Assembly (NCBI GenBank): GCA_965285935.1
Contig: OZ260662.1
Location: 25,420,001-25,484,000 of the forward strand
Source of the DNA: Ophelia neglecta
Taxonomy: Eukaryota
Length of the DNA: 64,000 nt
Direction of reading: 5' to 3'
This document shows, piece after piece, positions 1,426-28,200 of the stretch (within the stretch, counting starts at the first letter, position 1; the number at the start of each line of letters is the position of its first letter). Made by a program: the position numbers and the translations under genes. A model generated the notes under the pieces. The model made no database searches. It had not been told where the DNA came from and saw only the letters and a program-made list of their open reading frames with translations.

Positions 1426-4400
1426 CTTTAGATTTTCCGTCTCCTGTGAACTTGGCCAGGCCAGAGTTCTTGGCGATCTCCTCCTGGGCCGTCTCATACT
1501 TGGGATTCTCCATCACCTTCTTTGCCTTCTGCTGCTTGGCGAAGTCTTGTGGGTGGTGGAATACGAAAAGGTTCGATGATCCCAACAAAACTCTGTCAGG
1601 GACAAACAGGTGATATACATGGAATTATTTATATGCATGATATCACTAACCATCCTTGTGTGGGATGTATCTTTACACATGAATTTATGAACACTATTCA
1701 CCATTTACAATGATAATACTTTCTCAATTTTCATATAGTTTAAATGGGATTGGTAAAAAAATACAGAACACAGGTGCATCTGGAAAAAAAATTGCTTCAT
1801 TTAAGATAATTATTTATTGATCTTGCTCAAAGTATTAAATTCCATCTCACCCTGGAGATCTGTAACACACAAGGTGATGAAGCAAATGAATCTTTTTGGA
1901 TGAGAAAACGTGTACGTAGTAGTCAATGGCAAAATTATGATTTTCACGCAGTCTCCAGACACAGATTAACCTGTTTGCACGGCTATACAATTGCTTCAAT
2001 GGTCACCAGGTATGAGAGTCCATTAAATGTGATATAGGTGAGGTCATGGGGTCAGACCGGACAACAGCTTTCTCAAAGTTTGATCGGAGCATATATAAAA
2101 ACTTAAATATGCATATCATTTCTGCGGGGAGGCCTCCAATTATGTGGCCTCCCCCAGAAACCCGTTTCATATTAAGAGAGACAAAGGTACCTCGATCCAT
2201 CCCTGATCCTCCTGTGATAATCTGCCTCCCCCCCCCCACCCCTTATTGTTCTCATAAGTTAACTAGGCCAACACTGTCGGGGGGCCGACAGCAAGGGGTA
2301 TATCCGCGAATGCGTGCAATAATCGAATGGGGAACACGGCATAAGGCGAGGTAGTGAATATGGTAGTTTTTAGTTGGCACAAAAGATAACAACCTTAACT
2401 AATTTTAACTAGTTAACTTATTACACAGTACTAGTTAACTTATTACACCGATTGTAGTAGGTTCTATTTGACCTCAATAATAAGGCAGGTCATTAATAAA
2501 GTTGGTTCCAAATGACCTCAAGAATAATGCCAAACCACCTTAACTAATTTTTTTCAGGTCATTAATAAAGTTAACTAGTTAACTTATTACACAGATTGTT
2601 TATAGTTATTACATGAATCATGACACAAAACTTCAAGCCAATATCATCTATACTTTGGAATATTTGATAGAAAATGTGTTTTTGACATAATTTATTTCAT
2701 TATTTTACCTAATTAATAATTATTAGAAATTCACCAAAATAAGTCCAGTTCTTTCTCTCAATAAGGTCTAAGGCTGTGTAAAATTAGAAAAAGATGTATC
2801 AAATATCTTTTGTGTTATTGCAGAAAATGCGTTTCTGACGTAATTAATAATAATTGTTTAACTAATTAATAATTATTGGATTTTCACCAGAATCTAATCA
2901 GTTCCTCCTCTCAATAAGATCTATGGCTGTGTTGAATCTATGGCTGTGTTTTATATCTGCATTTCGTAGATATAATAATGAAGATATCTGCTTGATGCCG
3001 TATCAGCTGGCCACCTGTGAGGTAAAAGCTTCTTACTACAGGATACAATTTTCACCGTTTTTCACCACATGTTGTGCAAACTGGACGAATTACAGAGGAA
3101 TTTATAATTAAAACCCAGATTTAACCTCATATGGCTGGCCAACATATATTACTGAGACTTGTGCCTGCTTGAATGGTAGCCATATTTCTATATTAAACGT
3201 GTCTTTATGTACATTCAAAAACTGCCGATAACCGCTTGGCACCGACTGACCAAATTTTTTTTTTTAGCAATAAGTTAGTTTATTAACAACAACAACATCA
3301 GTATACAAGGTAAATAGCAATGAAAACAATGACACCTGAAGCAAGATATGCTTATATGGGTCTATTTAATATTAAAAGTTAAAGTTAGAATACTTCTGCA
3401 AAATAATATTGTTATGGGAACCACTTTATACTGCACCTGTCATTGTGGTGGAGCTCCTTTTTGCTGGTGATGGCATTACCATTCAGCAGCACTTTGGCTC
3501 CTTTGCTGGGGATCAACATCACCTTGTTATTTTTAGAGTTGTCCACAACGGCATGTTCTGGCTGGATTCTGAACCAATTAAAAAATAGTCTTTTCAGAGT
3601 AATAATCACGTTTTATTGTATAAATCTAATTTACCCTTAATTAATGAATATCACAATTAAATGAGTGTTACAATATTTGGGGTATTATGCTCTTTATACC
3701 TATCAAGGCATTGTCAAACCATGAAGTTTTAGTTCTGATCATCCCAACCCATTTAAAATTTATGCTGCCAAATTTTGTGACAATAATCGCAAACGTCGCA
3801 CATTTTTGGTTTCATTATGTAAAGGATTTTATAGACACATGTTTGCGAGCTCACCCTAGACCAGACAAGGCAATCTCGGGTGCCTTCTCCGCCTTCTTGC
3901 TTCCTATCCTCGTTTTACCTGAAGAAAAAGCAAAATAAATATGGGAACCCAAGTTGCATGCATATGTTATCATTTAATTTTTGCAATGACACACAAAATA
4001 GTAGCAAATAAGCAAAAACATTAACAATTACAATTTACTACTTTCACATGAATATTGCCACAGCTCCTATTTGCCGGATGAAAGATTCACACAGTCCCAA
4101 ATAAATGTCACATCAATTTCTCTGCTACTAATATAAATGTTATTTCTTTCATGCATTAATCTTGAATTTCACAGAACTTTAGGCCACTTGCAACATTTAT
4201 CCCTTTCACATGGTCATTAAATTTTTATATTATAAAATTACACAAATCACATGACATAGCTAGTATACAACTTGTACACAAGTCACCTGACATGGAGTGT
4301 ACACTGCTTACCGTTAGGACAGAAGTGGCTAATCATGCCAGTTAGGGCAGCATCCTCATTGAGATTCCAAAAATGGGGCACAGATTTTTTCTGCTCGTCA

Positions 4401-7400
4401 TCCTTCTTCTGTGCTGCAAGCTCTTTCTGCAGAGAAATTTGTTAAAATAATAACACTTCCTGTTCTATCCTTGAACAACTTTTCATAAATAGAGTGTGAA
4501 AAAAATGAACACATGATAGTAAGGTAATCATTCATAATTATCAGCCATATTAGCCAGAGCCGAAACAAACCAACAATCTCTGATATACTGCCATAGAGGC
4601 TCTACCAACTGAGTGACTGTGGCTGGCAATCAGCCTACCCCATAGGGCGGAAAGGCATGAATCCGACAGCAGCAAACGTAAGAGGTGATGACCTAAAAAA
4701 TATTTTGTGTCACTGCCGTTTATGATGTGACACTGTATGAGCCGAGTGTAGACATACCCTGAGTTCTTCTTCTCTCTCCTTCATCTTCTCCTGCCAGGAC
4801 ATCTGCATGGCCTCCATGTCTTCCTGGTTCTTTCTTAGCTGCTCCTCCATATCAGCCAGAGCTGAAACAAACGGTAAAAGTCAGAGGTGGTTCTTAAAAT
4901 GTCATATAGAGCCGAAACACATAGTACAGGTCAAAGGTCATTCTTAAAATATCAACTAGAGCTGAAACACACAGTACAGGTCAGAGGTCGTTCTTAAAAT
5001 ATCAACTAGAGCCAAAACACACAGTACAGGTCAGAGGTCATTCTTGAAATATCAACTAGAGCCAAAACACACAGTACAGGTCAGAGGTCATTCTTGAAAT
5101 ATCAACTAGAGCCCAAACACACAGTACAGGTTAGAGCTCGCTTTTAAAATATCAACTAGAGCTGAAACACACAGTACAGGTTAGAGATCGATCTTAAAAT
5201 ATCAATTAGAGCTGATCTAAACACATAGTACAGGTCAGAGATCGTTCTTAAAATATCAACTAGAGCCGAAACACACAATACAGGTCAGAGGTCATTCTTA
5301 AAATATCAACTAGAGCCGAAACACATAGTACAGGTCAGAGGTCATTTTTAAAGTATCAACCAGAGCTGAAACACACGTACAAGTCAGTAGACGTGCTCTC
5401 CATTATACTCTTGATTGTAAATCTCACTCAATCTAAATGCATACAATAGTCAGTTTCTGTGACTATAATTAATGTTATTAATATTCTACTGGTATTCTAT
5501 AATGAATTACAGAACTACATGTTCTGTTCTTAATGTTATGATATTAACAGAAGTATACTTTGATAGTCTTTGGATAGCCTTTACTTGAATTAAGAAACAC
5601 TGATGCAAAATGGATATTGAGTGAATATCCCATTATGACAAAGCAATGCTCAACTGGCCTGAAATAAGAAAATATGCAAATGATGTTAACATAGTTCAAT
5701 ATAAATGGTGAATACAACTCTTTCTGCTATAGGTCATTTATTTAATATTATTCCATGCATGTAGTTATAGCATACTACAGTTTGGGCATACACTTGTTGT
5801 ACAGGTATACTAAGTGTTATGATTGACATAATTTAGGTCCATTAAAACTAATATATCACTACAGAGAAACCTGTGCTGAGCAACCCTCAGTCAGGTCAAA
5901 TGTGGTGTCTCATATAAGGTGGTCTAAGGAAAGGGAAAGCTAATTAAGTTTTTAAATAGAATCAATATTAAGAAGAAATCTTTTGTTTATACTTGGCCAC
6001 AATTACGTTTATAGTAAACAATGTAAGCTACTGGCATGTGTATCAATCAGAGCCACAGAAAAATCAGGCCTACCGGCCATATAACGTTTAGTCAGGAGTG
6101 CCAAACCACAGATAACTACAGTTTTCTTTTAGGTCATCTGCAACAAGTGGCAATAATTTTCATAATTATATAGTAAACAAACTGGGTTTAATTTCAAAAT
6201 AATCCCACATTTTAACATAAATAGCAAATGAACACAAAAATCAGATTAGGATTACTAATTTCTAATTGTTCCTCAAAATAAGCATGATTATTAACTGTGC
6301 TGTCAGAAGTCATTTTAATGATGTGGGCACTGAGAGGGGGGGGGGGCAGTTTTAGGTGGAAATGATATCTGTCAATAAAATCCCTGTTTCTTCCCAAGGG
6401 TGGAGGAACTTCTCTACAGAAGAGCATGCAGAGGAGTGGGGGTCAATGGGTCACTCTGCACAAGCTGCCCTGTACTAACACCTTAAGTTTATAATAATAT
6501 GCTGAGTTGTGTTTTTTATAACTCCAGGTACATAGAATTAAAGCTGAATGATACTTACATGTACGTCTTAATTATTATGTACAACTTAACCAGGTTGTGA
6601 GGCGGTGCAAACTCTGATACGGGGACCAACATCTGGGACACATACACCAAGGACTCAGGATACAGGGACCAATCACCAGGGCCTGGGAAAGATATAAAAA
6701 CACCATACTAACATTCACCTTCCGAGTCTCCCTCGGCTCCACCGCCCCCCTCCAGCATGCCGGCCGGGATCTGGCCACCCTCTAACATCTTTTTCAGCTT
6801 ATCGTTCTCCTCTCGAAGCTCTCTGATCAGCTTGTCGGTGGGACTCTCATTCACTGTGGCAGTTGTTTTGATGGCCTTCGCACGATCAGCTGCAAATATG
6901 GTTTTGAATGCAAAATGTATTAAAATTTCTAAAAGTTTGCTGTTGCATAACTCCTTTCCATTTTAAAGGACTAAATAGTTCTTTCTTAACCTAACAAGAA
7001 ATTGAATTCATCACTGGAGAATAAAACAGGAAAAATACATACCAAACCTAAGAGTAGATAAGGTCTCTTCATAGTTGATATCAGCTGGACTCAAGGCAGC
7101 AATCTATATGGAAAATAAATGGTTGGTAATTATATAAGCCAATTATGTGGATAACAGTAGATAATAGACACACCACTGGGGATTATGGTAGTTATTGGCC
7201 AGGCACTAGGGATTATGGTGGTTACTGGCCAGGTCATTCGGGATTATGGTAGTTATTGGCCAGGCCACTAGGGATTATGGTAGTTATTGGCCAGCCCCCT
7301 ATGGATTATGTTTGATATTGGTCAGGCCACTGGGGATTTTGGAAGGTATTGGCCAGGCCACCGGGGATTATGGTATTTGTTGGTCAGGCCCCTGGGGATT

Positions 7401-10400
7401 ATGGTAGTAATTGGCTAGGCCACTAGGGATTATGGTAGTTATTGGCCTGGCCACTAGGGATTATGGTAGTTATTGGCCTGGCCACTAGGGATTATGGTAG
7501 TTATTGGCTAGGCCACTAGCGATTATGGTAGTTATTGGCCAGGCCACTGGGGATTATGAGAGTTATTGGTCAGGCCTCTGGGGATTATAGTAGTTATTGG
7601 TCAGGCTACTAGGGATTATGGTTGTTATCGGCCAGCCTCCCGAGGAATTTGTAGTTATTGGCCAGGTCAATAACACAGTTACAGGTCAGGCCCTTGCAGA
7701 TTATGGGTGTTTTTACCAGCAGCGTTCAATCTTTATAATTAACTCCTACAATATCTATAGAAGTTTCACATTAATATAAAAAAAATGTATTTTGTTCAAA
7801 TAGCCAATTCAGAGTGCTGATATAGTAAATATCCCACTCAATTTAGAGAGTGTATATCCAATTTAGAACTTGATTAGAATACTGACCATGACAGTTTTGC
7901 TGTTTCCTCCTAGAGCATTCTTCAACAGCTTCGTAAGAACAGAGTCTCGAAACGGGACTGAAAAAAATGATTTCAACATAAGGCTATTTGATGTAGAAGT
8001 TGTATGATGGGAAAAAGTAATTTTACACAATGCTGCCCCTACAAATCTCTGATATAAACAATAGTACTCCAGTTGTGAATTCATAGCCATAAATGATTAT
8101 TGGCTGCCACATATGTTCAATTGCTAGTCAAAGTGAGAGTTCAGTCATAAGTATGTAGTCAACTTTATATCAATAATTCTATCTATTTACATTTGCAGTA
8201 AAACTAAAATATACAGTAAATTTCATGAATTCAGTCAACCTGGGTTTTAAAACTTAAATCGTCTGATTAATTAACATATTGCTTTAATATTACTTCTTCC
8301 ATCTTACTGGCCAAATCCATTGAGAGGACAAACCCATGCAAATAACTTTAATATACGAGACAAAGCAGGCAAACTGTAACTGCATACACTACTTTTCTTA
8401 AGACTAATAATAATCTCATTCAGTTCTAATAAATTGTACTTATGGTCACCTATGAGAACAAGGTTACATGCATAATTAGCAAGAGCATACAAGCTTTTTA
8501 AATTATTTATTCATTTAGTGAATATTTGATATTAATTCCAATCTTTGTCAGTCATTCCTTGTGTTAACTAGTAGGCCTATATTCATTCGGTGGTACAAAT
8601 GATGATAGGACAACCTTAAAATATGACATTATGTGATCACGTGACAGGTGAAAGGGCTGTCCAAGAAAACTGAGGGGAAGGGATAGACAATTATTAAATA
8701 CAAATGTCTCTCATATGCCTAATAATGGAAAATAACCTAATAATAACCTAATAATGATGCCAACACACCAATCTCTCTGTGCTGGTGGTCCAGCTTGTAT
8801 TTAAAAAACTATTGTCCCTACTTGTATAAATCTACCCCTGCCCACTCCTGTTTCTATGACAGCCCTTAGCATTTTTCACCTACCATGAGAATGACCTTTA
8901 ATAGGTAAATGAAGGAATATATTTACTTTAGTAATGAATAGAAAACAAAATTGGTGACACTTCAATACATGAGCCTAGAAGAACTGGTCATAGGAACATT
9001 GATTGTTAAAAATAATTTGACAACATTAGTCACTCATTTTGTCATTTGTTGCATAGTGAATGGCACTTGGATCATAATCAAAACAATAATAATATTTTTA
9101 AATATACCAGTATCAAACTGGTTTGCTTATTGGTTGCGCCTTAATGTCCTGAAGGTTTTTTCATGAACAGATTATAGTTTTAAAACACAGAAAATATCTT
9201 AGCAAAAACCAGGTACCCTCTGATCACCTTTTATATGATAAAACTATGGAAATAATTAAGAGCAAAGCGCACATATCATAATGGATATGGAACCAAAAAG
9301 GTTCTGATGACAAACACTAATAATGTCAAATTGGAATTATCAATATGTGATATTATTTTTTTATTACCATGTAATCCCAGACCATTTCCCAAATCTCATA
9401 CATCAAAATGTCACATGTTTGTATCTAACACCCTGCTTAATTAAATCATTTTTAATATTTTGATAAAAAGCAGTCGAAATACAGCATAAATGAATTAATT
9501 TTAATAGTCAGTTACTCATGTTGATTCTGAATAGTAAATTAATTGACAATAGAGGAAATCTTTCTGAAATAACCATTGTTTCCATTAACATCATAGGAGC
9601 CATATTTTGTCACAATTTGCAAATCAACCTAGATTAAAAGTCTGGTAAATGCAAGTATTAAAAAAAACTCTGCAGCTCTTTGCCGCTTTTTAATTAAAAT
9701 ATCAAAGTTTGGAACTGAAGCAAAAAATGGCACCATTACATGAATGAGGTTTACCTGTTTGAATACCAAAAAGGATTGACAAGTATGTAGCTATAAAGGT
9801 TAATTGCTTTCACAGGTATCGTATGGTTAATATTTCACATAAATGTACACAGTTTAATGGATTGTACAAATGACCTACCCATGACCTTCTTGTTGCCACT
9901 GGACTGGTCGGCCAGGGCCTTGATAACATTACCCAGGGTACTTAGCGACTGGTTGATAGCTGAACCCTCTTTGAGACGATCTCCCGTTGCCCCTGTCGAG
10001 TCTGCTCGCTCGCTAGAAACATGATCATTATTTACCAGTTACTCAATTAAAAAACATTTAGGCATCCAAAGAGGAACCAAGGTAAAGATATATTAGAAAA
10101 CTGAAGAAATATAATATTTCTTATTTCCTAAGACTAAAGGAAGCATTCTTCACTATTTAAATACATTTTAAAAGCATTCAATGTGCTATTATTTCATGAT
10201 ATTGTGACAATACAGACATGGACTATATAAGGCAGGCCATAACAAACATACAACTAGACTACTGAAACCAGACACTTAGTGGTTTTTCTGCAGACACATT
10301 TACTGTTAATTTAATTTAACAACCAAATTTCAAATCATTCATTTTTTTTGCATAGTGTGAGGGAACCAAATGCTATTCTGTCCACTGAGGAAGGAAGAAA

Positions 10401-13400
10401 GACATCATTCTCCCAGAAAGATCACGCTGCTAAACTCTGAGTAATGATGTGTAAAACATGTGTCTGAGCTTCTTCAAATGTTACGTGTGTAACGGAAAGC
10501 AATCAAGACTCACCTTCCTGCCAAGTCCACCAGGTTGATACTTGAAGTCTTCGTCATGCTCTGACCAGCCGCATTTGGTGTCTTCTGAGTGAAGTTAATG
10601 GCTACGATGGTATGGGCACGACTAAGGAATAAACAGATTTGAAAACTAAAATAAAGTAAAAGTGTCAATCTTCATTATATTGGGCACCTTCAGCAGACAT
10701 AACCTAGGCCAAGATTCTGAAAGAATCACTCACTTCAAAATATCTATATTTTAAATAAACCTAGTGCTTTTTAGAAGACTAGCTAAGTAGTACATTTGGA
10801 CTGATGTATGGTGATTATTCCATATACCAAGAGATTAATGTTATTTTCTGATACACTACATCCATTCACTACACTGGAGAGTTGCTCGGGTCCTGACCTG
10901 CTAGTGGCGTTCATTTGAGTAGAAGCTACCGTCCTGTTTTTGGTTCCCTCGTTCATCTTGTTGTCAATTTCTTTATAACTGTTGACTGCCACAGACAATA
11001 AAGATTCCACTGGAATAAAAATATATCATTTATTATATCAATGGACAACTGTGCCTCAAATTTCATAAATTATTGGCCATTTTGAAACCTATAATTAAAT
11101 AAAAAAGCACACTTCTTTTAGGTTTCACCTGGTTAATATTTATGGTTGGAGTATTGGCTGGAGGATGATAATTACCATAGAATCCTTTCTTTGGGTTTTG
11201 TCTGACTTTTAGACCTCCTTTGACGTTTAAAGACTTGGGGTTCAGTAAATCTCTGACCTGCTCATTGTAAATCTCCAGCATACTAAATGACACCTGAAAA
11301 AACGACACATGACATATTTATAGTTGAAATATCTATATATCTTAATTCATTTTCATCGGTAAAACAAATTTCATCTACTACAACCACTACATTTATGCTC
11401 TGTAGGACAAATTCCATAGTATACACATAAAATACAGTAAGATAATAAATCAGAGGATTTGATCATGCTGAACCACCAAAAACACAGAGCACTGAACATT
11501 CTGTTAAAAACTTCATTATTGTTTAAATGAAAATCTAATGCACAAGTTAACAGGGGCTAATTACAAAAAATAAGAAATAGGGAACTTGTAAAGAAGTTTT
11601 GAAGACTTTATTGCTTTTTGCCACAAATAAGTCAATAAAGTGAAGCTCCAATTTAGCAACAACTAAAATATCCGAATTTGAAATGTATAAAAGATGTCCA
11701 CCTGGGACAAAACAATTGTACATCTAACTGATTGTATATTTCTTTTGCATAGTAGAGTTGAGTTGAATTCCTACCTGATATTCTTCGCCCTTACCAGCAC
11801 TGGCTCTCTTGGCTTCAATCGCCTTGAACAACTCATCACAAGATATAGGCACAATACCTAAAATAAAACAACATGATATATAGACCCCATACCTCAACAA
11901 CAATAAAAACATGATATTATACAGGCACCACCCCTCAAAGACAATAAAAACAAATCATCAGCACTATGCTTGAATGAAAACTGAAATGTAGGCATCCAGG
12001 TACATGTTCATGTAGATGTAGATACAAATGACATTATTTGCAAATAATAATTAAAATGAACAGGAATGGGGTTTTCTAGCATTACTTCTTAAAGGTACAT
12101 ACCATAGAATGTTATGTATCAAAAAAGGTATCAAAAGCCTTCACAGTCATGAAGTGCTCCCACAAATAACATAAAGACTGTGATCATGATGCTCAGCTTT
12201 CAAAAAGGTCAAGGGAAAGTTCAATGTCATTTATAGATTCATTGCTAGTAGTTGTCAATACAACTGTTGTGCCTAGAAGCCACCAAGAGGCATTAAGAAA
12301 TCAGTTTTCTTAACCAGTAGGTCATGGACCAGTAGATTTTTTGCATATGACTTCACACTAATGGTCCCATCTACCTTACCCAATTAAGCAACATAACAGC
12401 ATATAAAATGTAAAAATCAGTTTGACCCTGAAAACTAGGTTAAGGTCAATTTCAGGGTTCATTGTAGATTCCATGCACATGACTTTCTTTTACAGGTTGA
12501 CATATAATGTTATAACTATCTTGCCCAGTTAATCTACCAGAAAAGCATTGAAACATCTCTCATTTTCTCAACTTGGGGAAAAAAGGGGAAAATCAAATTA
12601 AAGCCTGACATTTTGTTTTAACCTCTTGACATCCTATTACTGGTATAAATCTTTACATTAAATTTGTTTTGTCTATATTGCACTTTCTAGTTAACAGATG
12701 ACTCTAGAGTGAAACCCTAGACAAGTGAAAAACATTGAATTAGCAACAATTTTAAAAATTATTTCAATCATTAACCTAACATAAATTTCATTGAAAGGAG
12801 TGTCAGGGCAAATCTAATGTAAATATAATTTGATGGACAAATGGACGAACGGCAGACGGACAGACAGCAACATGAGAGTTTAACTGGCTTTTATAAAATA
12901 ACCATTTATTGACTCAGTATGATTTGTTGAAATGATTCCTTACATCTCACACAACCGAAAAAGTTGCTTGTTATCTTCAAAGAATAGTTTACCTTACACT
13001 GTTTTCAATGATACCGGTATACATTAATTCTTTTTTATTTTGGCAGAATCAATTAAGGTTTCTTGTGTTTAAAAGGACTTGGATTTATATACACCTGCCA
13101 TTATTCATTATTCAGATTAATAAACACTACATTATCATTTAATATTTATTATTAGACCATCTTTTTTTCCAATTTAATTACTTTCATATTTTGAAACAAT
13201 ATAAGAAAACAAATATGCAACTTAACTCGATCTTCTTAGGGCTGATAAACACTTTGGCAGAAATGTGATTCAGTATTATTTAGAAAGTAGGCGTTTAATA
13301 CAATTAATTGTATGTAGTCCTCTTAAATCATGAATAATTGCTGTAATGCACAAGCAGAAAGGGTTTAAATCTCTAGTTAAAACTCTAACAACTGTTGGTA

Positions 13401-16400
13401 CAACTGCTGATTTAATACAGGAAGTTAGAAAGAAATCAATTGGGATCAATAATTTAAACATGTCTATGTTCCCCTTAAACAACAACATTGATTGTCTTTT
13501 TGCGGAGTAATTACCATTTGCTGCCTTCAAAAGGTTACATTTAGGTAACTAGCAATTTTAATCTATACCAAGCATTTACACTATTATAGCAAAATAAAAA
13601 CACATATCATGCATATAAACTGATTGATTGATTCCATGCATATATGAAAAAAGTATATGAATAAAAAGCATTGAGAAGCTAGCATGGCCAGAGTAATGAC
13701 AGACATATATTTGTTTCCAAAATTGTGCCTCTAAATGTACACTGGGAAAAATAAAATAAATAACAATGCAAATATTTAATTTATTTATTATAGTAAGATG
13801 TGACAAGTCATTTGAAAAAGGGCAGTTGACATAATGGCCGAAAAAAGGCACTGCAAAATTAATAACGTTAAATAAGTGGGTACAGATAAATTGTTTTCTG
13901 CCTTGATATAAGAAATAGTTGGAAACAGGCAGAACTAGACTGTTTGTACCCCACGTTGTCAAAGCCCTTTTTCTGTATTACTTAACATGTATCTGGGACA
14001 TGGTTTCTCATTTATTCTCATTTATCTTTTATTTGAAAGATATCAGGAAATACTTCAGGAAATCAGTAGACATATTCGAGGGGTACTGACTGGCATTGTG
14101 TTCTGTCGTATGCGCAGTGACCTACTTAGAAAACGAGAGAGGATCACTCGAAAAAACTGTGTTGAATTGTGTTGATTTCAAGAGTCATGTCTGCCTCATA
14201 TGCACAAATATTAATTCCTAAATGAATATAGTTAATAAATGAAGTTTGGGGGGATGGCAATGAAAAATTTTCAGCAAATTTTAACCTCCCCTCCTCCCCC
14301 CCCCCCCCCCGGAAAGATTTATTAATAAACCATGATACCCCCCTCATAAATTTTGACTTTATTAAAGGCCCGGGGGGGGGGGGGGGGGAGAAGCTTTGCC
14401 TTTTTACCACCAACATACTGAAATTGCAAGGACAACACATAAAAAAAGGTTGTAAAATAATTGAATGCCTCTCCCAAATTTTTTTTTTGGCCACTCCCCA
14501 ATTTGCATACTCCCCATTCCCTCCCTCCCCTATCCAATATGGCCGTCCTGTGCCATATTAGGGCCAAAAGGTACAAGTGGTGCGCACCGGCGGCAGTGGG
14601 CTGAACTGATTGTGCAGAAGGATTATTTCTCAGGCAAAATCAGTAATATATGCTCTTTGCCATGGCTATATAGTCCAAAAGAGGTTCAAATAGTTTGATA
14701 AGAACTCAAATGATATTTTCCTGGGTAAAGACAAATTGATTATATGGTTTTTAGATTTGATTTCTAAAATATTTTACACTTTAAACACCAACCAAAACAA
14801 AGCACCAGAAACATTTCCCCAAATATGTGTATTGCTTTTGGTTGCTTTCTGTTTTAGACAGAAAACAACAGGAGGACCACTTGAATGGAAAGTTTTGAAA
14901 ATCATTTTCTGTTGTTTTCTGTTGGTACCACTCGCGTGGCCCTAGTGTGAGAGTTATATATGCTAAACATAATCTGTGTATCCACATTCAGTGGCTGAAA
15001 TGTCTGTTGTGGTCAATGTTATGGAGCCCAGAAACATGAACTGATATATACTGTATGACTGCATGGCAACAGCACTGCCTCAATGATCACTTTATTAACT
15101 GTATAGCCTTAGAGTAATTAAATAATTTTCAAAATTACATATTAGGATTATTAATTAAAGTTGCATAATTGTTCTGCAAATGCCTGGTCATCAGAGGATC
15201 CAGTCCGTGATAAATACCTCAAATTTAAATTAATCTCCTTGTCCGGTTATGTAATTCATTGAACCGGTACTTTGCCAAGAAGTATAACAAAAAGACTCTG
15301 GTCACAGTGAATAACTAGAGCCAGGCAGCAACAAAACCCTAATGTCATTCAAGGAATGGCATGTTAGTGTATCGTACCAACATACAAATAGAAACCAGAG
15401 TACTCAGTAATGGTGTTCACAGACTGTGACCACGGGTCAAACATATAATGCTTGTCAGCCTGTTTACTGTCCACATGTGTACATAGAGCTGGAGCTAGTC
15501 AGTGTCGTAAAGTGTAATCCCCCACAAGGTGACCGAGCTTTGACGTCATCTGACAATAAGGTACATGTGTTTGTGTCCACAAAGGCGGGGGAACGGAATT
15601 GTGTTTTAATCAGTGCCTTCAGTCATTACTGAAAAACACAGTGCAAGCCCCCCCCCCCCCCCCCAATGATTCTACTAGCTTAATGCACTGAAACTAAAGC
15701 AAGACTGAAAAAAAGGTCATTTTGCTTGTAAAATGCTAGCTATAGAATGAGCTGCTAACTCCTTGTCAAGTTTGAGAATTCACCATCACTGCCCCCCCCC
15801 CCCCCAGCATCATTATGATATGTTAACATCTGCTTGGACTAGGCCCATATGACTCAGTTTGTTAGCCAGTTACTGTAGACACTGTTCCAATACAAAATCA
15901 CACAATGCCAATATATTTAAATACCAATTGCATAACTCACACAGCTGGCTTATCCTTCATGCACTCAGTACAACCTATTTGTCATAATCAATCACTCTTG
16001 AAGCCCATTCACAAATAGTATCTGAACAGTATTGTTTATTTATAGCTGGATGCATGATCCTACATACAAAAAATGTAGCCGCTTACATTATGTGACCGAA
16101 GAAAAAATGAAACAAATCCCTACTTCATTTTCAATGCCTAAAACCCTGAAAACCAAGCAAAAAGGGCCACAATGGAAAGATTTTGTCATAAAAAAGGAGG
16201 GTGAGTGTACAAAGAATACTGTAGCCAATAAGTACAAAACGCAACCTATGATTGGTTATTTTCCTTCATTTTGACCAATCACATCTAGCTTTTCTAATGC
16301 CATTGGTATACAGATTAATTATGGCAAATAAGCCTGCGTTGTGTTGTCTGGTTATTGTCTATCAAGAAACCAACATTAATAGCTGGGTATTTTTGAAAAA

Positions 16401-19400
16401 TGTCTATCTTGGACTAACAGGAATCTCTGGTAGTTTTATTTGAGAAAATAATGTGGTTCCATCTTAGAGGGCCAAGGGATCAGGGAGAACTGCTACGCTT
16501 GTTTTTGAGTCCACATAATATGTTAATCTCAGAATCCTAATTTTAAAAGAAAAATTTCCTGTGAAATATTATATGTATTAATCGCAGGAGTTTATTTCCT
16601 TGGAATTCTAATTTCACCAACATTAATTTCTGCTATTTTGGTACATTAATGAAAATCACAAAATTAAAGTACTGCAAAATAAATGACTGTTACAGTATAT
16701 TGACTGGAGTCAATATATCACTGTGGTATGCAAGGGATAAATGTGCCGAAAAAGCAGGATAACAAGGAAGGACATGAATATGGTGTTATTTAGTTGAAGG
16801 TTTTAATACAATACTTTATGACAATACTTTCTCACCTTTGTTAGTTCCATAGCCCACCATTGAGTATGATTTTCCTGAGCCAGTCTGTCCGTACGCAAAC
16901 AGAGAGCAGTTGTAGCCCTTCCAGGCATTGTCCAATACGCCTCGTCCCAAATCGTCAAACACTTTTTGCTAATTTGGAAAAAGATGAGTTATGGTATTAA
17001 AAAATATTTGTCAATGATCTGCAGCGTTTCTAGCCTATGAATAGACAATAACAACCCAGAAGATATTTGGCCTACAACATGAACATTTGGCTACTTTTTT
17101 ATATGTACATGTACAGCTAGTCTATAGGCCAATTTCGATTCCAAAACAGTTAAATTTGGGGGGAAATTATTTTAATAAATGTATGTATTGTTGTACAGTT
17201 ACTAAAACTAGTAAAGGTTTGTAAAAAAATTAGGCTCTCTAAAAAAAATTTGGCTTTCATATTTTGAGAAATAAAATCAGTCTATCAAGATCAGGCATCT
17301 CTCTTGTATATTTGAGGCTACTGCATAAAATAATTGGCTCCCAACATTTATTCCTGCTCCAGCCCCCACCCACCACCCCTCCCCTAACCCTAAATGAGCA
17401 TGTGTTACAATGACTTACATGACTAACACCCATTCAGGACAGAATAACGTGTCTTTGACATGAAATTACTTTTCACTTATTTTAAAGCTTTTAGACTTTA
17501 CCTGGTCAGCATATTTGCTATTAGTGGGTTCCAGGTAGCCATCAGCCCGCTCCTTGAAGCTGTCATGTGACCAGTACGAGTAATCAAAGGCAAACTTCTT
17601 AGGTTCACCCTTCATCTGTTCAGGATCTTTAATGGTTGTGGTGTTACCATTCATATCAATGATGACCACTGCATTTCGCTTCTTTTCACGGTCATTGTGC
17701 ACAGCAGTTAAGGATCATTCTATTTCAAAGCGGCATCACATATAAAACTTTGTAGATTCTCAGAGTTTTGTTCACAGATTGAAAACAATTTTTATCCTGA
17801 ATTTAATAACTGCTTGTAATCAAGTTTCATTTCATTTAAAAAATGTTCATCTTTAATGTGTATTACCATCACAACATTACCATAGATGGGCATAGATTAT
17901 TCATAATACTATAAAAGATTACATATCAGATGGTATCCAGGGACAGAAACTACAGCTCTAATTCATGTATCGATTTCAAGCAATTAGATGACCATCCATG
18001 TAGGTACACAGACAGGGGGTATTATGTTGTTAACATAGGGTTTATCAACTAATGGCTGAATCAATAACAACCCACAGCTATCTGCTTATATAGATATGTA
18101 TACTTTCATTGGGAATGAATCAATGGTGACCAAACAAATAAAAAGTAATATGAAATTATAGATTTTCCATATTCACTGAGCAACCAAGAGACCTCACACA
18201 GGTATACACACTAGAAATGACGGTGGTGTGTGTTTGTTGTATCTAAATATCATATGCCATGTCAAGTTGGTAAACAGAGTGGTCAAATGGTTTTGTAATG
18301 GGCCTTACTTATACATACAAAACACTTGATAGAGATCCAAGCTGTGATAAAACAAGACAACAATGCACATAAATGAGAGATATATTAGGTCAGGATGAGA
18401 ATTTATTATAGAATTCCATCAAAACTGGAACACTTAATAATTTTATGCAATTGCACTGGAAGTAATCAAGCTACATCGTTTCTCGTTGATAATTAATCAC
18501 TCTATAAATGTTATCGCTAGGAACATGATGTCTACTTACTACTAACTAGACTTATCTAAGCTGAAATGCGTAAATCATATCATATTTATTATCACTGTCC
18601 CTACAAAATATGCACAGCTGACATGATCTTGTCATCTGACCATTTGTGATAAAGTAAATTGAGGATTTTTGCCATTTACAGAGAGTTGAGCTGCTGAACA
18701 GAAAGTACGACTGATTCTCAACTGTCGGTGGATCAAATGGGGATATTGCAACCAATGTACAAAAAACGGTGTTTGCGTACATCATTTAGTATGCTTTTTC
18801 ACCATAAGAGAGTCCCCATTTTAATCTTTGTTTGAAAAAATTATAAACATGTACTTAATCTGCATACAATTGATCACAGCTGGCTACAGGACTATGCCCC
18901 TGATTTACTAGTACATGTGGCTGGTAAAGTTTGGGAGTAGTGACCTCAGTCCTCAGCTGAACCTTTCAATATTTATTCCATAAACAAGAGCATATTATAC
19001 ATTCGTGGAAATGCTAGATAGCTGAAAAAGGTAAACCATATTCAACTTGTCAAAAGTTTGCCAAGCTTATCTAATCTATAATAATCTAAAATATCATAGA
19101 AATGTTCCAAATTAACTATTTCACTGCACTGATTTTATATCCACAGGGGATGGAAGATTTAAAACATTTAGGCTCACGAGAGTACAGTCCCAAGTAAAAA
19201 AGTATTGTAGTTGTGTCATGCTAAACATCGAAACCGACCAAAACTGACATAAACCAAGTATAAATATCAGAAAAGGGGTGCCTAGGCGGGATCATTTGTA
19301 TGTTTTAAATCTAAAGATGTCCTATCTATAAAGCTGTCCTTTTTTTGGATGTGTTTTTTCTTTCTTCTAAATTATACGATTGCTGCCCCACATCTTTGTT

Positions 19401-20480
19401 AAAACTTTAAAGAGGAAGTAGTCAACTCTATAGAGCTGTGCTCATGCCTGATCTAAAGGGGTCATTATACACAAAAGGATGCACCACTCATATCACAATA
19501 ATAAGTGATATGAAAATGTCATAAAAAGGAAAAAATTTGCCAAAATAAGAATATCAAATGATTAGGAAGCAAATTTATACCATTGGGTTATATACACAAG
19601 TTGTTATATGCCCTAAATACCAATTGCATGCTTTTGGTCAGTTTTTGGTGAGTTTCAGTAGGATTCAATGTTTAGAATGACCGTTGTAGACTACATTTCA
19701 TGGAGGCATGGATGGACCCATCATGGACAAGTTTTAATAAAGCATCCCTCCGCCAAACCCTCCAAACAAATTTACAATGTATCATTGAGAGGAAGAACGG
19801 GACATAGGTGTATCATGTCCCTAATCATTAAAAAAAACTCTGAACATACCAAATTGCATAAGGGGAAAGAGCAAATACAATCTGGTACATGTTCGAGAAC
19901 AGAGTAGACTATATTCTGAATTGATGAAATATAGTCTTTAAATAAATTGGGAAATGAGTCTTTATATGAATGTGATAATAACACTCGTTCCAGCACAGAT
20001 TTAGATGAACATGTGAAGCCCTGGCCACAGACGTTGGGCATGTTTGCGATTCCAAAACAAAAACAAAAGTTCACATAGCCCTATATGTCCGAATGGGAGG
20101 CATAACATGGAATAATTTAGACAGTTGCGCTTAAGCAAATTTATCGAATAGTTTGGCAAAAAAAGAAAAATATGTGCTGACATACATAAAAATGTTTTGT
20201 TATGTGCAATAAATAATAAAATCGTGACTTTAATAGTGTACTATTTTTGGAACTTGAATGCGAGTGTAGTCCTAGACAACCACATGCGACAGATGTCAGA
20301 CTGTGAAACTACATGAAAGTAAGTGTAAACATTCAATCGCTTCTTAAGAAAAGTTATATACGAAAACAATGTAGGCTAATGCACTTATCTGCAAATGTCG
20401 AACAGTTTTTAGTGATCATATATTACAGAAAAGGATATGAAAGGCCGGACCCTCACTGCTACTTTGACTGCCTCCGCCAT
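1426..20480 (-). CDS. KIF28: Kinesin-3 family motor, KIF28/KLP-6-like (motor + neck coil + FHA); 3'-partial, continues beyond left edge
   Basis: Phase-consistent exons (minus): 20439-20480, 17502-17696, 16836-16968, 11775-11857, 11176-11293, 10898-11009, 10514-10621, 9879-10012, 7887-7957, 7043-7103, 6719-6889, 4758-4861, 4312-4426, 3855-3918, 3437-3568, 1426-1592 (~603 aa). Motifs: [30 protein letters not shown]-loop [28 protein letters not shown], switch I NATSSRAH, switch [36 protein letters not shown], then PHFWNLNED...IQPEHAVV...LHHNDRVLLG (kinesin-3 FHA region). KIF28 subfamily call is from recalled similarity, not a search. Confidence 0.9.
2400..2935. repeat. Degenerate interspersed repeat with internal ~153-bp duplication
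   Basis: ACTAGTTAACTTATTACAC occurs three times (2408, 2430, 2575). TAATTAATAATTATT...CTCTCAATAAG(G/A)TCTA(A/T)GGCTGTGT occurs at ~2709-2780 and ~2862-2932. Confidence 0.55.
4855..5385. repeat. 50-bp tandem repeat (~11 copies) abutting the kinesin exon 12 acceptor
   Basis: Unit AGAGCTGAAACACACAGTACAGGTCAGAGGTCATTCTTAAAATATCAACT, with GC(T/C)(G/A)AAAC recurring at 4861, 4911, 4961, 5011 and onward. Confidence 0.95.
7173..7666. repeat. 31-bp minisatellite (~16 copies)
   Basis: Unit GGATTATGGTAGTTATTGGCCAGGCCACTAG in kinesin intron 9. Confidence 0.95.
17697..20438 (-). other. U12-type (minor spliceosome) AT-AC intron, intron 1 of the kinesin gene
   Basis: Minus strand 5' end ATATCCTTTT (from 20438 down), branch site TCCTTAAC (17714-17707), then 10 nt TGCTGTGCAC ending in AC at 17697. 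Splicing restores the conserved VRVRPF|NDRE; no AG acceptor lies at the exon boundary. Confidence 0.93.
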
Positions 20481-22203
20481 GTTGTAAACTGTTAGTGGCT
20501 GTTCTGTCAACCTCTTCACTACAACCACCCCTCCGAAAAAGAATTTATATTATGTATTGTGCCAGCAGGTGGGGGCACAGTTTATGCGACCAGAGCGGCG
20601 GCAGTGCAGTCTGTTGGGAAAATGCATAACTAAAAACTTTGTTTCTTTTCAATATCCATACATGTACAATCATTTACATGTATACTATCTTTTGCGTTAT
20701 CTCTTAATCAGTGACTTATAAATGGATTTAACTTACCCCATGTAGTGTTTGTATGTTGCATCTTTCTTTTAGACTTTTGAGTACACCATTTTATGATAAA
20801 CATGTGCATCATTATCTGGAACCACTAAACTTGGTTTGGTTGTTCCAGATTATATATATATTATAACACAGAGCAAAATTCCTAATTTACTCCATCACAA
20901 ATATTGATTTCTTTTGATTCAAGGCACAGTTAATTTGACATCCAAGGGAAAAACTAATTCATTGCTCGGTACAGTATATTTGGAAATTTAATAATCATGT
21001 TGAAAGTTTACATAAAAAACATCTCACATTATCTACTCATTTAAAGCCAAGAAAAAAAGCATTGTTTTTCATTTTATTCATGTAATTCATTTTATTCATG
21101 TAAATCAAAGATATAATACGTCCACTGAATGTAAGAACAGTTAAAACAAGGGCTTCAATACTTAAGGATCATAAGAATAAGCAAACCATGCAGATTCTAA
21201 AAAGACAGGTTTTGTTAGCAGACTGATTTTGCTATTTGTGAGAAGTGTCTGGGGGAGGGGAAGGGGGGGGGGCTTGGAACACCCCCACCCACTCCCCCTT
21301 GGAGGAGCAGCACAACTATGGAGGGACCTATTTAGAAAGGGAGGGTTGTATGTGGGAGAGGTTAGAAAATGTGTCCCCCACCACCACCACCCCCTCTAGA
21401 TTTTAATTAGAATTAACCCCAGGGCATTGACAAGAAGTCATCTAAATTTCTGGCTTACAATTCACTTCACATCTTTATACTAGATATAAAAACGTAATAA
21501 CAAAATACATGAAATCATTCCTCATTTTAATGTCACAAAAACATTATTATTCCATGTATATACAAGAGATGAGGACTTTCACATTTTAACTCGTGATAAT
21601 TGTCTTTCAAGTATAGAAAGTATAAATACAAAAACCAATATACACAAATGGCTTAATAATTACAGTTTCTGTCTATTCTGATAACACACAATCACAAACA
21701 TTGTCAATGGATCAAAATTAATATAGAAAATACCAGTACTATTTAATTTATGCTGGAACGATGGAGTCTAATATAACAGCTTAATAATCATATCAAAAAT
21801 ATAAATATAAATTGGAATAACAACAATATCTTATTTATAAACACTAGGAAATAGTCAATAATATTACTTGGCTAAATCAAGCAGGTAAATAAGTAGTTGT
21901 AAAACATGCACATAAGATTACTGATACTGGCAGGGATGGAATTAACTACAAGGAAATTTGGACCGTCATATATTGCTGTTCCCTCTATATACTTGCATCC
22001 CTTTGGGTTGGTTGACTAGGAGATTTTACCTTACTTGTCTGACATTTATTTGGTATCAGGGCAAAAAACATGCATAATGTGTCACATGTAAAAGTACTTG
22101 TGTCAACATTCTGAATAAACAACTGTTAGCCCCGAAAACAGGCAATTATATATTCTTTCACTATTGGTTGTCAGTTTCTCTGTAGCTCTCTTTAGTAGCT
22201 TTG

Positions 22204-25200
22204 TTATTTGGATTCTGTAGATCTATGTCCCACCCATTTGGGTGTTGACACTGCTAGCGGGGACACTGTGTCCCTGCTAGGGGTGATGACAAGGGGAGGG
22301 ATCCTCTGATCATAGCCATGCTGGGCAGTGTCCACCAGGCACCTCTCACTGGTACCATCAGCAAACTGGCACAAAGTAAACATATCTTTTGTATCATCCT
22401 GACTATCAGAAAAATTCAAATTCTGGCCTTGGGTAATACTACTTACAATAAGTGAACAGTTGTCGAAGTCATTTTCAACTTTCACATTGTCTGTGTCAAT
22501 GCTGTTAGAGATAAAGATGGTGGTTTCTTCAAACATGCTGTCCATGGATGAATAAGTAGCTTCTAAAGCATCGACGTCTGGCTTCATATCTTCTGTTTTT
22601 ATAGTATCCTGAGACTCCAATAGGTGGCTCTGCTCACCATGCACATTTTGGATTTTTGGCTGGATGAGATGAATTCCTTTTGGGAGAACTTGTTTTCCTA
22701 CAGTTATCAAACAGTCTGCAGACTTTCCTTGAAGTGGGGTTATCAATGCTGGAGCTTCCACTGAGCTAGCCTCAGTAGTATTCACAGTTCCTTGAAGACC
22801 ACAAGACTCCGCGTGCACATGTTGACGGGGAGGTGTACAACTGTCTGCTGGGGTTGTTTGTGCCAAAACATTTGGTGTCAACACCTGCCCCGCGCCTGCC
22901 TCTGTAGGTTGATTCTGAGATACTGGAGATGTATTCACATGTGTCGGCATCCTGGTTGCATGGCTCACCACGTCTGGAGCTATCGCAGGCTTTAATGATT
23001 TGGCTGGCCTTCGCATTTTCCGCATTCTAATATAGTCTGGAGGAGGTTTACCTTCCCCGTGATATCTTCGTCGATGCATCTGTGATTAGAAAAATGAATA
23101 TAACACAAGAAATATCAAAATATGATAATGCAAAGATTAATAACTTTGAATTTAGTATTCCGTACAATATTTTACTATTTGACTTGTAGGAAACTTAATA
23201 ATATTAATACTTCGAAAGCACCTCACAGAATCAAAATTATCCTGTGATTAATTATATAAGGTGGGAGGGGGGGGGGTAACTAGTATAAAGAAACATTTAG
23301 TCCAAGCTGTAAGGGTATATTCCAATTGGTCTCCCCAGAGAGCTCTCCGCCTCTGCGCCTTAGAGGATGCAAATGGCATAGGTTCGGCCCGGAGGGATTG
23401 CAAATGGAATATGTTCGGAGAAACCTCACTCATCGCTCAAAATTATAAATTATAATACACATTATTTTCAGGAATAAATTTGCATTTGCTATTTAATATA
23501 CTACTTAATTCATGAAAGTTATTTTCCGTATAAAATATCAATCTTTAAAGCATGTCTAAAATTCGAGGCTTAATATTGGCAGTAAATAATTCACGGAATT
23601 TCTGGATAATGGTGTCTTCTGGGAAAACTCTCTGGGGACACTCACCTCTCCAGGGGAGTGCCCGGAGAGATCCAAAGAGGCTTTCTGGTCTGTTCCATTT
23701 TCATTCGCGAACTTATGGCTAATGGAATGACATTTCTATCGGCAGAGAGATATCCCGACATAAACTAGAATATACCCTATGCAATCACTAACAAGTGGGT
23801 TTTTAAGGCTATTTAAACAGATTAAACCTTGAGATTTCCCACTGAGTGGCTCTTTCTGGTGGCACTGTTAGGGTAAAAAACAAGGGTGGGTTGGCAAGTG
23901 GGGAGTGAGAGAGGACAAGGGTGGGTTCTCTTTAGGATATGGAAGCTTATTACAGTAAAGTTTTAAGAAGCATTACATACGCTGTAATAGTCTTTTAAAC
24001 GGAAGGCAATGTCACACTCTTCACACTTGTAGCGCTTTTCAACATCCCCATGAACTGAGCTTCTGTGGCGTCTCAAATTAGTCCTAAAAGGAAGTGCACT
24101 TAGTACAAACTAGTAGCTTAATATTCAGAATGTATGTAATCATGATAATTTTATCTGGACACAAATAATATACTAGTCTATGTTTTCATAAATTGTTACT
24201 ACTATTACAATTACAGCTCTTTACTATCATATACATTATATGCTTCTGCAAACAATTTTGTAGAAAATATTGGGAGGTTTCATCTCTTCAATTCAGGCTA
24301 GAAGTGTCACTAGAAAAGATTAATCTTGGGTGCCTATAAATAAAGTATTTCCTACTTTACAAAAAAAAAAGAAGAGTAATGAAGTTTTGTTGGGTAAGGG
24401 TTAGTGGAATTTTTTTTAGATTTTATTTAAGTTTAGTTAGGTAAATAAACAACTGTTGCTATGAGAAGGAAAAAGGTTTCTTTTCCAACACCCCCCCCCC
24501 CCACCCATATTACTAACTGACATAATATGTTTCTAACATACCTGTAAAGGTATGCCTTGTCACAGTGAGTACACTTGAAAGCACGTTTCTCTTCATGAAC
24601 AACTTGATGATCCCTGAGACCGCTTGTAGATGTGAACTTTTTACTACACAACTGCAAAATATTAAACATGTTTTAGGTATATGGAAGTTACTGACACCAT
24701 TTTTGTTCTATAGCATTAAAATTATGAACTTTGTCATTTGGTACCAGTGTCTCAGGGAATTCTAATAATCAGTATTAGTAATTTTAATTGTTCATTAAAT
24801 ACCAGCTAGTGAGACATACCTTGCACCCAAACTCTTGTTCTGAGTGTTTTTTCTTGTGTGAGATGAGAGTTTCCACTTGCTTGAACTTCTCTTGACATAT
24901 TTCACATTGGTAATCACGTCTGTCGCTGTGAATCTTGAGGTGGGCGGTGAGTTTGTGACGTGCCTAGCAGAAAAACATAGGACATAAATAAATATTTAAA
25001 TAAAGTTTATTTTGACTCAATAGATCCATTTGGAGCATGGAATGCGTAGCAGTTATTACATTTGAAGCTGCTGGTAACAATTCAGAGGAAATAAATCAAT
25101 AGAACAAGTTTGAAATTTGTAAAAAATTGTGCCACAGCCATATGAGCTTGATAATGGTAGCCAAATATTGGTTGATATTTTAAACTCAATTTCCCCTATT

Positions 25201-28200
25201 CAAGTTATTGATACCAAGCACCTTAAACTTAGCCAGGAAGATGCCTAATGACACTTGATTAAACCAGCAGTGATTCATTTAGAAATTTGATGGCATGTGT
25301 CCCCGGACTCAATGATGAAAAAAAAGGGTCCTCACTGTAGTTTTGAAGCCATCATTTAGAAATTAAGTGTGTCATGGGTCTCACTTCAGGGAAAAAATTT
25401 GAGTCCTTTTGGAAAATTACGAGTCAAAGGACTTGGGACTCATTGTTAAATGAATCACTGAACCAGGTTCAATTTTAGTAGGTGAATTAAAAGCTCCAAT
25501 ACCCTCCTGAGTCCAAGGTGAGGAGGACCAAGGACAGGCTATCATTCCTTCTTGGAGACAAAGTTCCTTAGCTTGGTTTTGACCATTTTGCCCATGTGTT
25601 TAGAGGTCAACCCAGACAACACTAGCTGGTTATAATACTTTGTGTATACGTATATCTGGATTATTTCTAACTGACATTTCATATATATTATTTATATTGT
25701 TGCGTGACTGGTGGGTCAGCAAAAGTTCAAAAAGGTATTTTAAATTCAACCAGTTTTATTTTAACAGCAATAAACTATGGTCATAGTTGGGGGTTTCTTA
25801 TGGCTGGCAGAGGCAAGGCAAGGCGCAATACTTAAATTTTCAAGTCCAGAAAATTTCAAGTCCCGAAACTTCAAAGTTAATAAAAATTTCTAATCTATTA
25901 CTAAAAGTCCTATATAGCTGTGATTTCTAAATAAGCTCGCATTTATATGGATGGCTGTAAGTTCCTAGTTGACAGTTCAATCACAGTTCTTGGCAAAATT
26001 CGAATTTTCGAATTTGGTTGAAAGTCAAACTTGAATTTTCGAATGAGGTATAAACTCGAATTTTCGAATGCAGGTATAAACCCGAATTTTCGAATGCAGG
26101 TATAAACTCGAATTTTCAAGTGCAGTGTTTACAGCCAGGACTTGAATTTTCGAGTTCTGACAGCTGAGTAACACATTTCTGTGAAAATTCTGTCAAGTTA
26201 CCAAACAGAACCAACAGAGCGAAAGAATAAACGTAATAAACGTCAACAGTTCAATTTGAATGTAAGAAACTGAAATATTCAGTATACTCAGCCTAGGCTG
26301 TATATTTGAAGCCAATTTGGCTTTTAAAATGGCATGTTTACCAAGTGAAGCGTCAGAGACAAACTTGAAAATTCGAATTACGCGCCCCCTTTTATAGTTT
26401 TCTGGCCAGCAGACGGTGCTGATATCCTAGCAACGCCACTATGATGTAGGTCGCAGGTCACATAAATTACGTAACACAAGGCCCACGAGATTTGGCACAA
26501 TACGCCAGTATCGCGGTAAAATGTACCTATTCATGTCGTATCTACTAAATTACGAGTGATAAATAAGTTCTTTGTCACCGGGAACCATTGCTTGCTTCAT
26601 GCCAAGAAATACACTAAAAGTTACGGCACCATCATGCAATGTTTAGTTAAGTGGGCCAAATGCCGGCGGCACATCCAGTCTTCTGTCAACGATACAGTTT
26701 GGAGCTACAAAGTTTGTTACAGCAATAAAAGTCTCAAGTGTTCTCGCTCAGGTAACAACAGTTTATTAAAGGTCATGAAACACGGTACACCACAATATTT
26801 TAACAAGTTTTCTTTGTAAGATCAGGCAGAAATGTTGTTCACTGTTTTATGGTGGACAAACACAACTAAACCTGAGCTTTGCAATGTAAAAAGGGCATCA
26901 AAATCCTTGTTACAGAAGAACTGTGGTAATTAAAGAGATATAATGTAAGCTCTTAATGGATACCAACTGTAATTTTTCAATTGAAAAGTTATTAATTCCA
27001 TGATTATTAATGTTCATATCACAAGGGAATGTGTATTGTAGCAGGGGCTGATGGACTATGACCAGCCTTGTGACGTCTGCTATGGACAAAAAATAGACTA
27101 CTAGATGGAAGGGCCCTGAACATAACATTTGGCGCTGTGGATGTGATTACTTCTGTCTACCAAAACTTTTACATCATTGTCTTGTTACAGTAAATTACAT
27201 CCTTGATGATAACTTAATCCTGTCCACTTTGAGCGGAGAATATGTAGTATAATTGTATTATTCTGTTGAACCATTACCTTAAACGCCTTATGGCAGATGT
27301 CACAGGTGAAGTTGCGTAGTTCTGAATGGGTCATCATGTGACTACGAAGGTTGTGCATCCCATGGAATCTCTTATCACAGATATTGCACTGGTAACCTTG
27401 AAAACCTATATAGGTACAAAGAAATAATATCATATATCATATCATATCATATACCCGCTATACTCATTCCCTTGTTTTCTGTCAAACTCTTGTCATTTCT
27501 GTCTAATGTTCCCAGGTATCTTTACAATTTCAACTGAAAGCAAGTTGAATACACTTTTGAGGGTCACTAAGCCTAAACAACCTCATGTACCAGCACTGTT
27601 AATGAGGATTCTGGCTCTGCTCACAGACAACAACAAAATGGCTGTGAGCAAGTTAATAAGATACATGCTATCTCACACAACTCAGAGTGAGGAGGAGACC
27701 ATGATCTGTGATTGTGCTGCATTTAGTTGTTCTGATACTATGGGCTCTCCCTTGTTTGATACAAGTACATATGTAACTAATGATTTACATTTAGTTTAAA
27801 TTTAAACACTTGTATTTAACACATAATAAACTATAATAATTCTGATTATGCCATATGGTACAATATGCAGGAGGAACCTTGTATCTTCTAAGAATATCCC
27901 ACATTGAATTATATGACTTGACTATCCTCAGTGTAGATAAATTAACAACATACCGAGGGGGCCCTCCTGTCCATGTGTCTTTCTCTCATGGATCTTCAGT
28001 TGACCAGACGTAACATAATCCTTCCCACATGTAGAACATATGTATGGCTTTAAGTCTCCATGTACTGCCCTCTGGTGGTACTGGAAATGCAAAGACTAGG
28101 AAATTCAATGCTTCATAAAATGTACCACAGTGTAAGGTTACTAACTAGGTGCCATACTTATAGTAGCTCTATATATATTCTCTATAGTTTACTGATACAT

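Follow-up and report, generated by a model that had tools for sequence, protein, structure and literature searches.

The start of the motor domain in a KIF28/KLP-6 kinesin-3 gene of Ophelia neglecta is split by an AT-AC intron with U12-type signals, at a codon where the break is common to many animals, and judged by its sequence this intron is very likely excised by the minor spliceosome. The gene lies on the minus strand of the 64,000-nucleotide stretch of genomic DNA that was analysed (the window, to which plain positions refer). The intron (17697..20438, minus strand), placed by its donor, branch site, terminal AC and the gene model, is 2,742 nt long and of phase 0, and separates a first coding exon of 14 codons (20439..20480, minus; ATG at 20480), referred to here simply as the first exon, from an exon 2 of 65 codons (17502..17696, minus), which was placed by homology and the gene model, reads NDREKKR from 17696, runs from NDREKK to YADQ and is followed by a GT-AG intron. 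The 14-codon exon, presumably the first motor strand with the RxRP motif, is joined to exon 2 in 89 of the 120 listed homologous proteins, and it is from this homology that the RPF-NDREK junction was inferred. The initial annotation, in which a phase-0 AT-AC intron of 2742 nt joined the 14-codon exon to NDREKKR, was confirmed in its coordinates, ends and frame.

The U12-type 5' splice site has the consensus RTATCCTT, to which the start of the intron conforms. On the minus strand, the intron opens with ATATCCTTTT at 20438 and closes with TCCTTAACTGCTGTGCAC (...GCAC) at 17697. The donor ATATCCTTT (20430..20438, minus) is recognised by sequence and by predicted duplexes with U11 (-5.6 kcal/mol) and U6atac (-9.2 kcal/mol), and the branch site TCCTTAAC (17707..17714, minus), with the likely branch A at 17708, by sequence and a predicted U12 duplex with one A bulged (-7.4 kcal/mol), all three energies being given with no shuffled control. 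The terminal AC acceptor (17697..17698, minus) has no distinct polypyrimidine tract before it, just TGCTGTGCAC standing after the branch site, while most other introns are pyrimidine-rich at the end. The branch A lies 12 nt from the intron end, the A counted, inside the optimum of 11-13 nt which, together with the defining U12-type features, is given in PMC3584512. The ATATCCTTT donor occurs once on the minus strand of the window, and in 100 dinucleotide shuffles such a donor arose 0.76 times and a branch-plus-AC motif 2.9 times per 64-kb strand, which corresponds to a chance per site of about 1.2e-5 and 4.5e-5, respectively. Such motifs are not rare alone, and the evidence is therefore their exact placement at the breaks predicted by homology rather than their rarity. 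The assignment to the U12-type class made earlier for this intron is thus borne out by the donor, the branch site and the missing pyrimidine tract.

Animals usually retain a minor spliceosome, and the suggestion that the organism keeps one was supported by a genome search, in which matches above the Rfam cut-offs comprised two U11, two U12, one U4atac and four U6atac genes (one U6atac weak). U2-type AT-AC introns carry a U2-like donor and a pyrimidine tract, neither of which is present in the window intron. Though this subclass exists (PMC3584512), it is very improbable that the AT-AC intron, real as it is, belongs to it and is removed by the major spliceosome, given that the donor and the branch site fit the U12 pattern, which recurs in 30 loci, and that the four kinds of minor snRNA genes are present. 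In excision of this kind, the donor would be recognised by U11 and the branch site by U12, U6atac would next take the place of U11, and the AC situated 12 nt past the branch A would serve as the acceptor, producing RPF-NDREK, a course of events drawn in part from PMC3584512. On retention of the intron, the frame stops after 23 codons, so that production of the motor likely needs minor splicing, as was supposed in the initial annotation.

The hand-built model of the gene has 13 exons and 482 open codons, with 11 GT-AG introns besides the AT-AC one, the further kinesin exons (1426..16968, minus; rest of the motor, neck and FHA domain) being separated by GT-AG introns throughout. A spliced alignment that included the neighbouring stretch gave 870 stop-free codons and 23 introns, 22 GT-AG and one AT-AC; the 27-nt exon that it places at 6481-6455 is doubtful, and leaving it out keeps the reading open. 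The gene extends past the first base of the window, and the 870-codon model ends without a stop. An N-terminal kinesin motor followed by an FHA domain, as the gene model has it, is the KIF28/KLP-6 architecture; the FHA match is weak (E 0.001, on one exon of the window gene), and a Pfam domain search with exons 2 and 3 alone returned no match. The Kinesin, FHA and KIF1B domains are present in a Capitella protein that is 81% identical to the model, the closest among 41 hand-picked named homologues, with which the model also pairs in a quick tree (SH-aLRT 91), built without KIF1, KIF13 and KIF14 outgroups and with 10 rows less than half filled. This affinity to Capitella makes the animal a likely annelid. 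Among the exon-2 protein matches listed, most of the top named ones are labelled KIF28, KIF28P or klp-6. The Aplysia orthologue scores 884 bits against PDB 7WRG, which we take to be C. elegans KLP-6, versus 402 bits against KIF1A, and matches 7WRG far better than KIF13B or KIF14 too. By way of this orthologue and the homologue labels, the window gene is placed nearer to KIF28/KLP-6 than to KIF1, KIF13 or KIF14, and its initial description as a KIF28-type motor agrees with the top named homologues, the Capitella protein and the Aplysia comparison alike. Beside KIF28/KLP-6 kinesin-3 (7WRG, titled 'Kinesin-like protein'), the window protein has nothing unusual.

Among splice junctions tried for the window gene, the GT-AG options with an open frame that keep VRVRPF or NDREK all add ISFS and delete at least NDREK, and no GT-AG or GC-AG alternative leaves both that segment of the motor which comes first and the residues behind it intact. 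Tandem repeats, seen from translation only, occupy the kinesin introns at about 980-1400 and 4830-5400, the latter set appearing to duplicate sequence around an exon acceptor, and high-copy repeat pieces were indicated by contig depth and loose ends at 20813-20851, upstream of exon 1, and at about 19120-19720, inside intron 1. Elsewhere in the window, the upstream gene or genes at about 22200-29800 (minus) encode several zinc fingers of the C2H2 type along with a stretch that weakly resembles a homeodomain (E 0.017), and a DDI1/DDI2-like gene at about 38280-43450 (plus) matches the Ddi2 HDD domain and the aspartyl protease.

The exon-2 protein search gave 135 matches, 120 of which were listed and underlie all counts of homologues. 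Besides the 89 proteins joined at the RP[FY]| junction, 12 begin at an internal Met that lies 14 residues inside exon 2, another 14 include translated sequence from the end of the intron (the residue before N being H in 8, Y in 5 and K in 1) and 5 are otherwise odd. An H or Y before N accords with an intron that ends in AC or AT. Among the named models alone, nine start at the internal Met, four read through the intron end and one skips across. The warning that such introns would leave gene models truncated or mis-annotated therefore holds for 12 internal-Met starts and 14 read-through models of the 120, as judged from protein sequence only. The internal-Met starts, together with a GT lying 12 nt inside the intron that could be joined in frame to AGs within exon 2, are also what could be said for a GT-AG junction or for initiation at that Met, the AT-AC signals then being incidental; such a product would, however, lack either the opening segment of the motor or NDREK, which are kept by 89 of the 120 listed homologues and by the solved relative 7WRG, and the signals stand at the exact homology breaks in many loci, which leaves this explanation hardly any probability.

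The comparison of intron position and type among orthologues, as proposed in the initial annotation, found AT-AC introns at the same codon in many animal loci. The best 80 of 265 confirmed metagenome matches were examined, and 30 of them carry an intron at the identical codon. Both ends are visible in 21 of the 30 (16 distinct loci once near-identical copies are merged): 19 are AT-AC, one is AT-AT (L028:1001-2241, with an AC 3 nt further as the alternative) and one is GT-AG with a U12-type donor (L048:840-1070). The 3' end alone is on the contig in the other nine, all with AC, which brings the introns ending in AC to 28 of 30, and a branch-like motif stands 11-14 nt before the intron end in all 30. 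As to the rest of the best 80, six loci are genomic, carrying intron 2, and have no intron at the AT-AC site; in two (L080, L100) a GT-AG intron lies 6 nt further downstream; 40 are uninterrupted with no trace of intron 2, being transcripts or intron-poor genes; one is broken elsewhere, and one is too short. One locus (L042) is 98% identical over exon 2 to a Paralvinella protein, and two others (L047, L059) cluster with Pocillopora in the quick tree. The same-site intron is present in two separate KIF28 clades, one of them holding the Pocillopora-like loci, which suggests that the intron likely arose before KIF28 was duplicated and before corals and bilaterians diverged; this age is modestly supported, since the quick tree has many short rows. 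By this distribution, the AT-AC intron is to be regarded as inherited rather than new, with no special regulatory role required.

In addition to its excision by the minor spliceosome, the intron might have been retained as a rate-limiting switch on the amount of KIF28 per cell. Its long conservation, the adjoining start codon and the early stop on retention speak for such a switch, as does the proposal that slow U12 splicing is rate-limiting (PMC3584512). However, six genomic loci are without the intron and others have altered ends, and much of minor-intron evolution is perhaps neutral, as the title of PMC10639083 has it, so that we consider the switch unlikely. Loss in the six genomic loci and the GT-AG intron 6 nt downstream in two loci and one paralog show, moreover, that the intron is not indispensable.

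The kinesin locus is highly polymorphic. Three sequencing runs, compared as contigs from one sample, revealed a second allele in two of them (X1 and X3), with the branch site TTCTTAAC (window position 17713) and one base changed after it (17705). The TTCTTAAC form recurs in a metagenome locus (L043), and its predicted U12 pairing is weaker (-5.3 vs -7.4 kcal/mol, with no shuffled control). Among the differences listed, none touches the AC or the core of the donor. The run contigs cover the intron in the manner of DNA, with no exon joint, and are uninformative on expression.

The genome search with exon 2 recovered paralogs, while that with exon 3 found the window only; the family in this genome comprises four intact-looking members and one broken tandem copy. 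A distant paralog at C1:125.32 Mb has 879 open codons and carries, where the window gene has its AT-AC intron, an AT-AC intron 3,774 nt long, placed at the identical codon. In the paralog at C1:42.85 Mb (G000:C1:42849829-42846258; L022), which is KIF28-like with an open motor domain, a GT-AG intron stands at NQ|R, two codons (6 nt) further downstream than the AT-AC site, an intron placement as in L080 and L100; it makes a near-intron pair with the AT-AC intron and may represent either a shift of the AT-AC site or a separate gain. The paralog at C1:120.41 Mb (from G000:C1:120,406,869) has 831 open codons and 22 GT-AG introns, besides a first intron of 405 nt with AC-AC ends (G000:C1:120406917-120407321, in L019), which starts with ACATCCTTTT and ends with TCCTTAACTCCTTTGTAC, its U12 donor being otherwise perfect and its branch site perfect. 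GT-AG or GC-AG alternatives were also tried for this paralog, and every one likewise impairs the start of the motor, in its first segment or just past it. It stands on a long branch in the quick tree (0.98). A partial tandem copy of it (G000:C1:120422388-120436190; L021, L026) is broken within the motor by a stop and a frameshift, and pN of 0.029 against pS of 0.095 between the two is a sign of past purifying selection on their sequences. Exon 1 of the broken copy was not found within the stretch examined, so that the AC donor cannot be dated from that copy. The C at the second base of this donor, known from the assembly alone, may reflect an error or a rare allele, or else mark a gene on its way to decay. 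We tentatively entertain, with somewhat more doubt than confidence, that the AC-AC paralog functions as a kinesin gene and that its first intron is a substrate of the minor spliceosome, as the U12 counterpart of GC-AG.

Compared with the U12-type AT-AC introns of animals, the window intron is alike in the donor, the branch site, the lack of a pyrimidine tract, the branch distance, the ends and the accompanying minor snRNAs, but differs in its phase 0 and in a gene missing from the mouse and human lists. AT-AC makes up 21.8% of the conserved animal minor introns and AC-AC 1 of 73,671 (column summed) in Table S1 of PMC10639083, and that paper places on average about 22% of all minor introns in phase 0 and notes minor-intron enrichment in molluscs and a brachiopod. 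Kif28 and Gm1305 are absent from eight supplement files of PMC6717393 (mouse and human lists), in which Kifap3 was found, and Kif28 does not occur in one supplement of PMC11347168. Titles and abstract openings retrieved for AT-AC U12-type with kinesin and for KIF28 with intron contained nothing on the window intron, and no paper was found on a KIF28 minor intron or on kinesin-3 and the minor spliceosome, though survey databases may list the intron. Likewise, no paper was found on AC-AC U12 introns, and AC-AC is missing from the main text of PMC4176328. The window intron is a sound, old and ordinary case of an intron type already known, and what is added are an intact paralog with AT-AC ends at the identical codon, the AC-AC paralog and a third paralog whose GT-AG intron lies 6 nt downstream.

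Public KIF28 models in which the motor start is lacking or garbled at the AT-AC intron can be corrected. If the AC-AC paralog is spliced, the second donor base would be variable in a natural minor intron, and the AT-AC, AT-AT, GT-AG U12, lost, +6-nt GT-AG and AC-AC states would form a natural series of minor-intron type change. In evolutionary terms, a single codon here holds an old AT-AC intron of phase 0 that has met with several fates.
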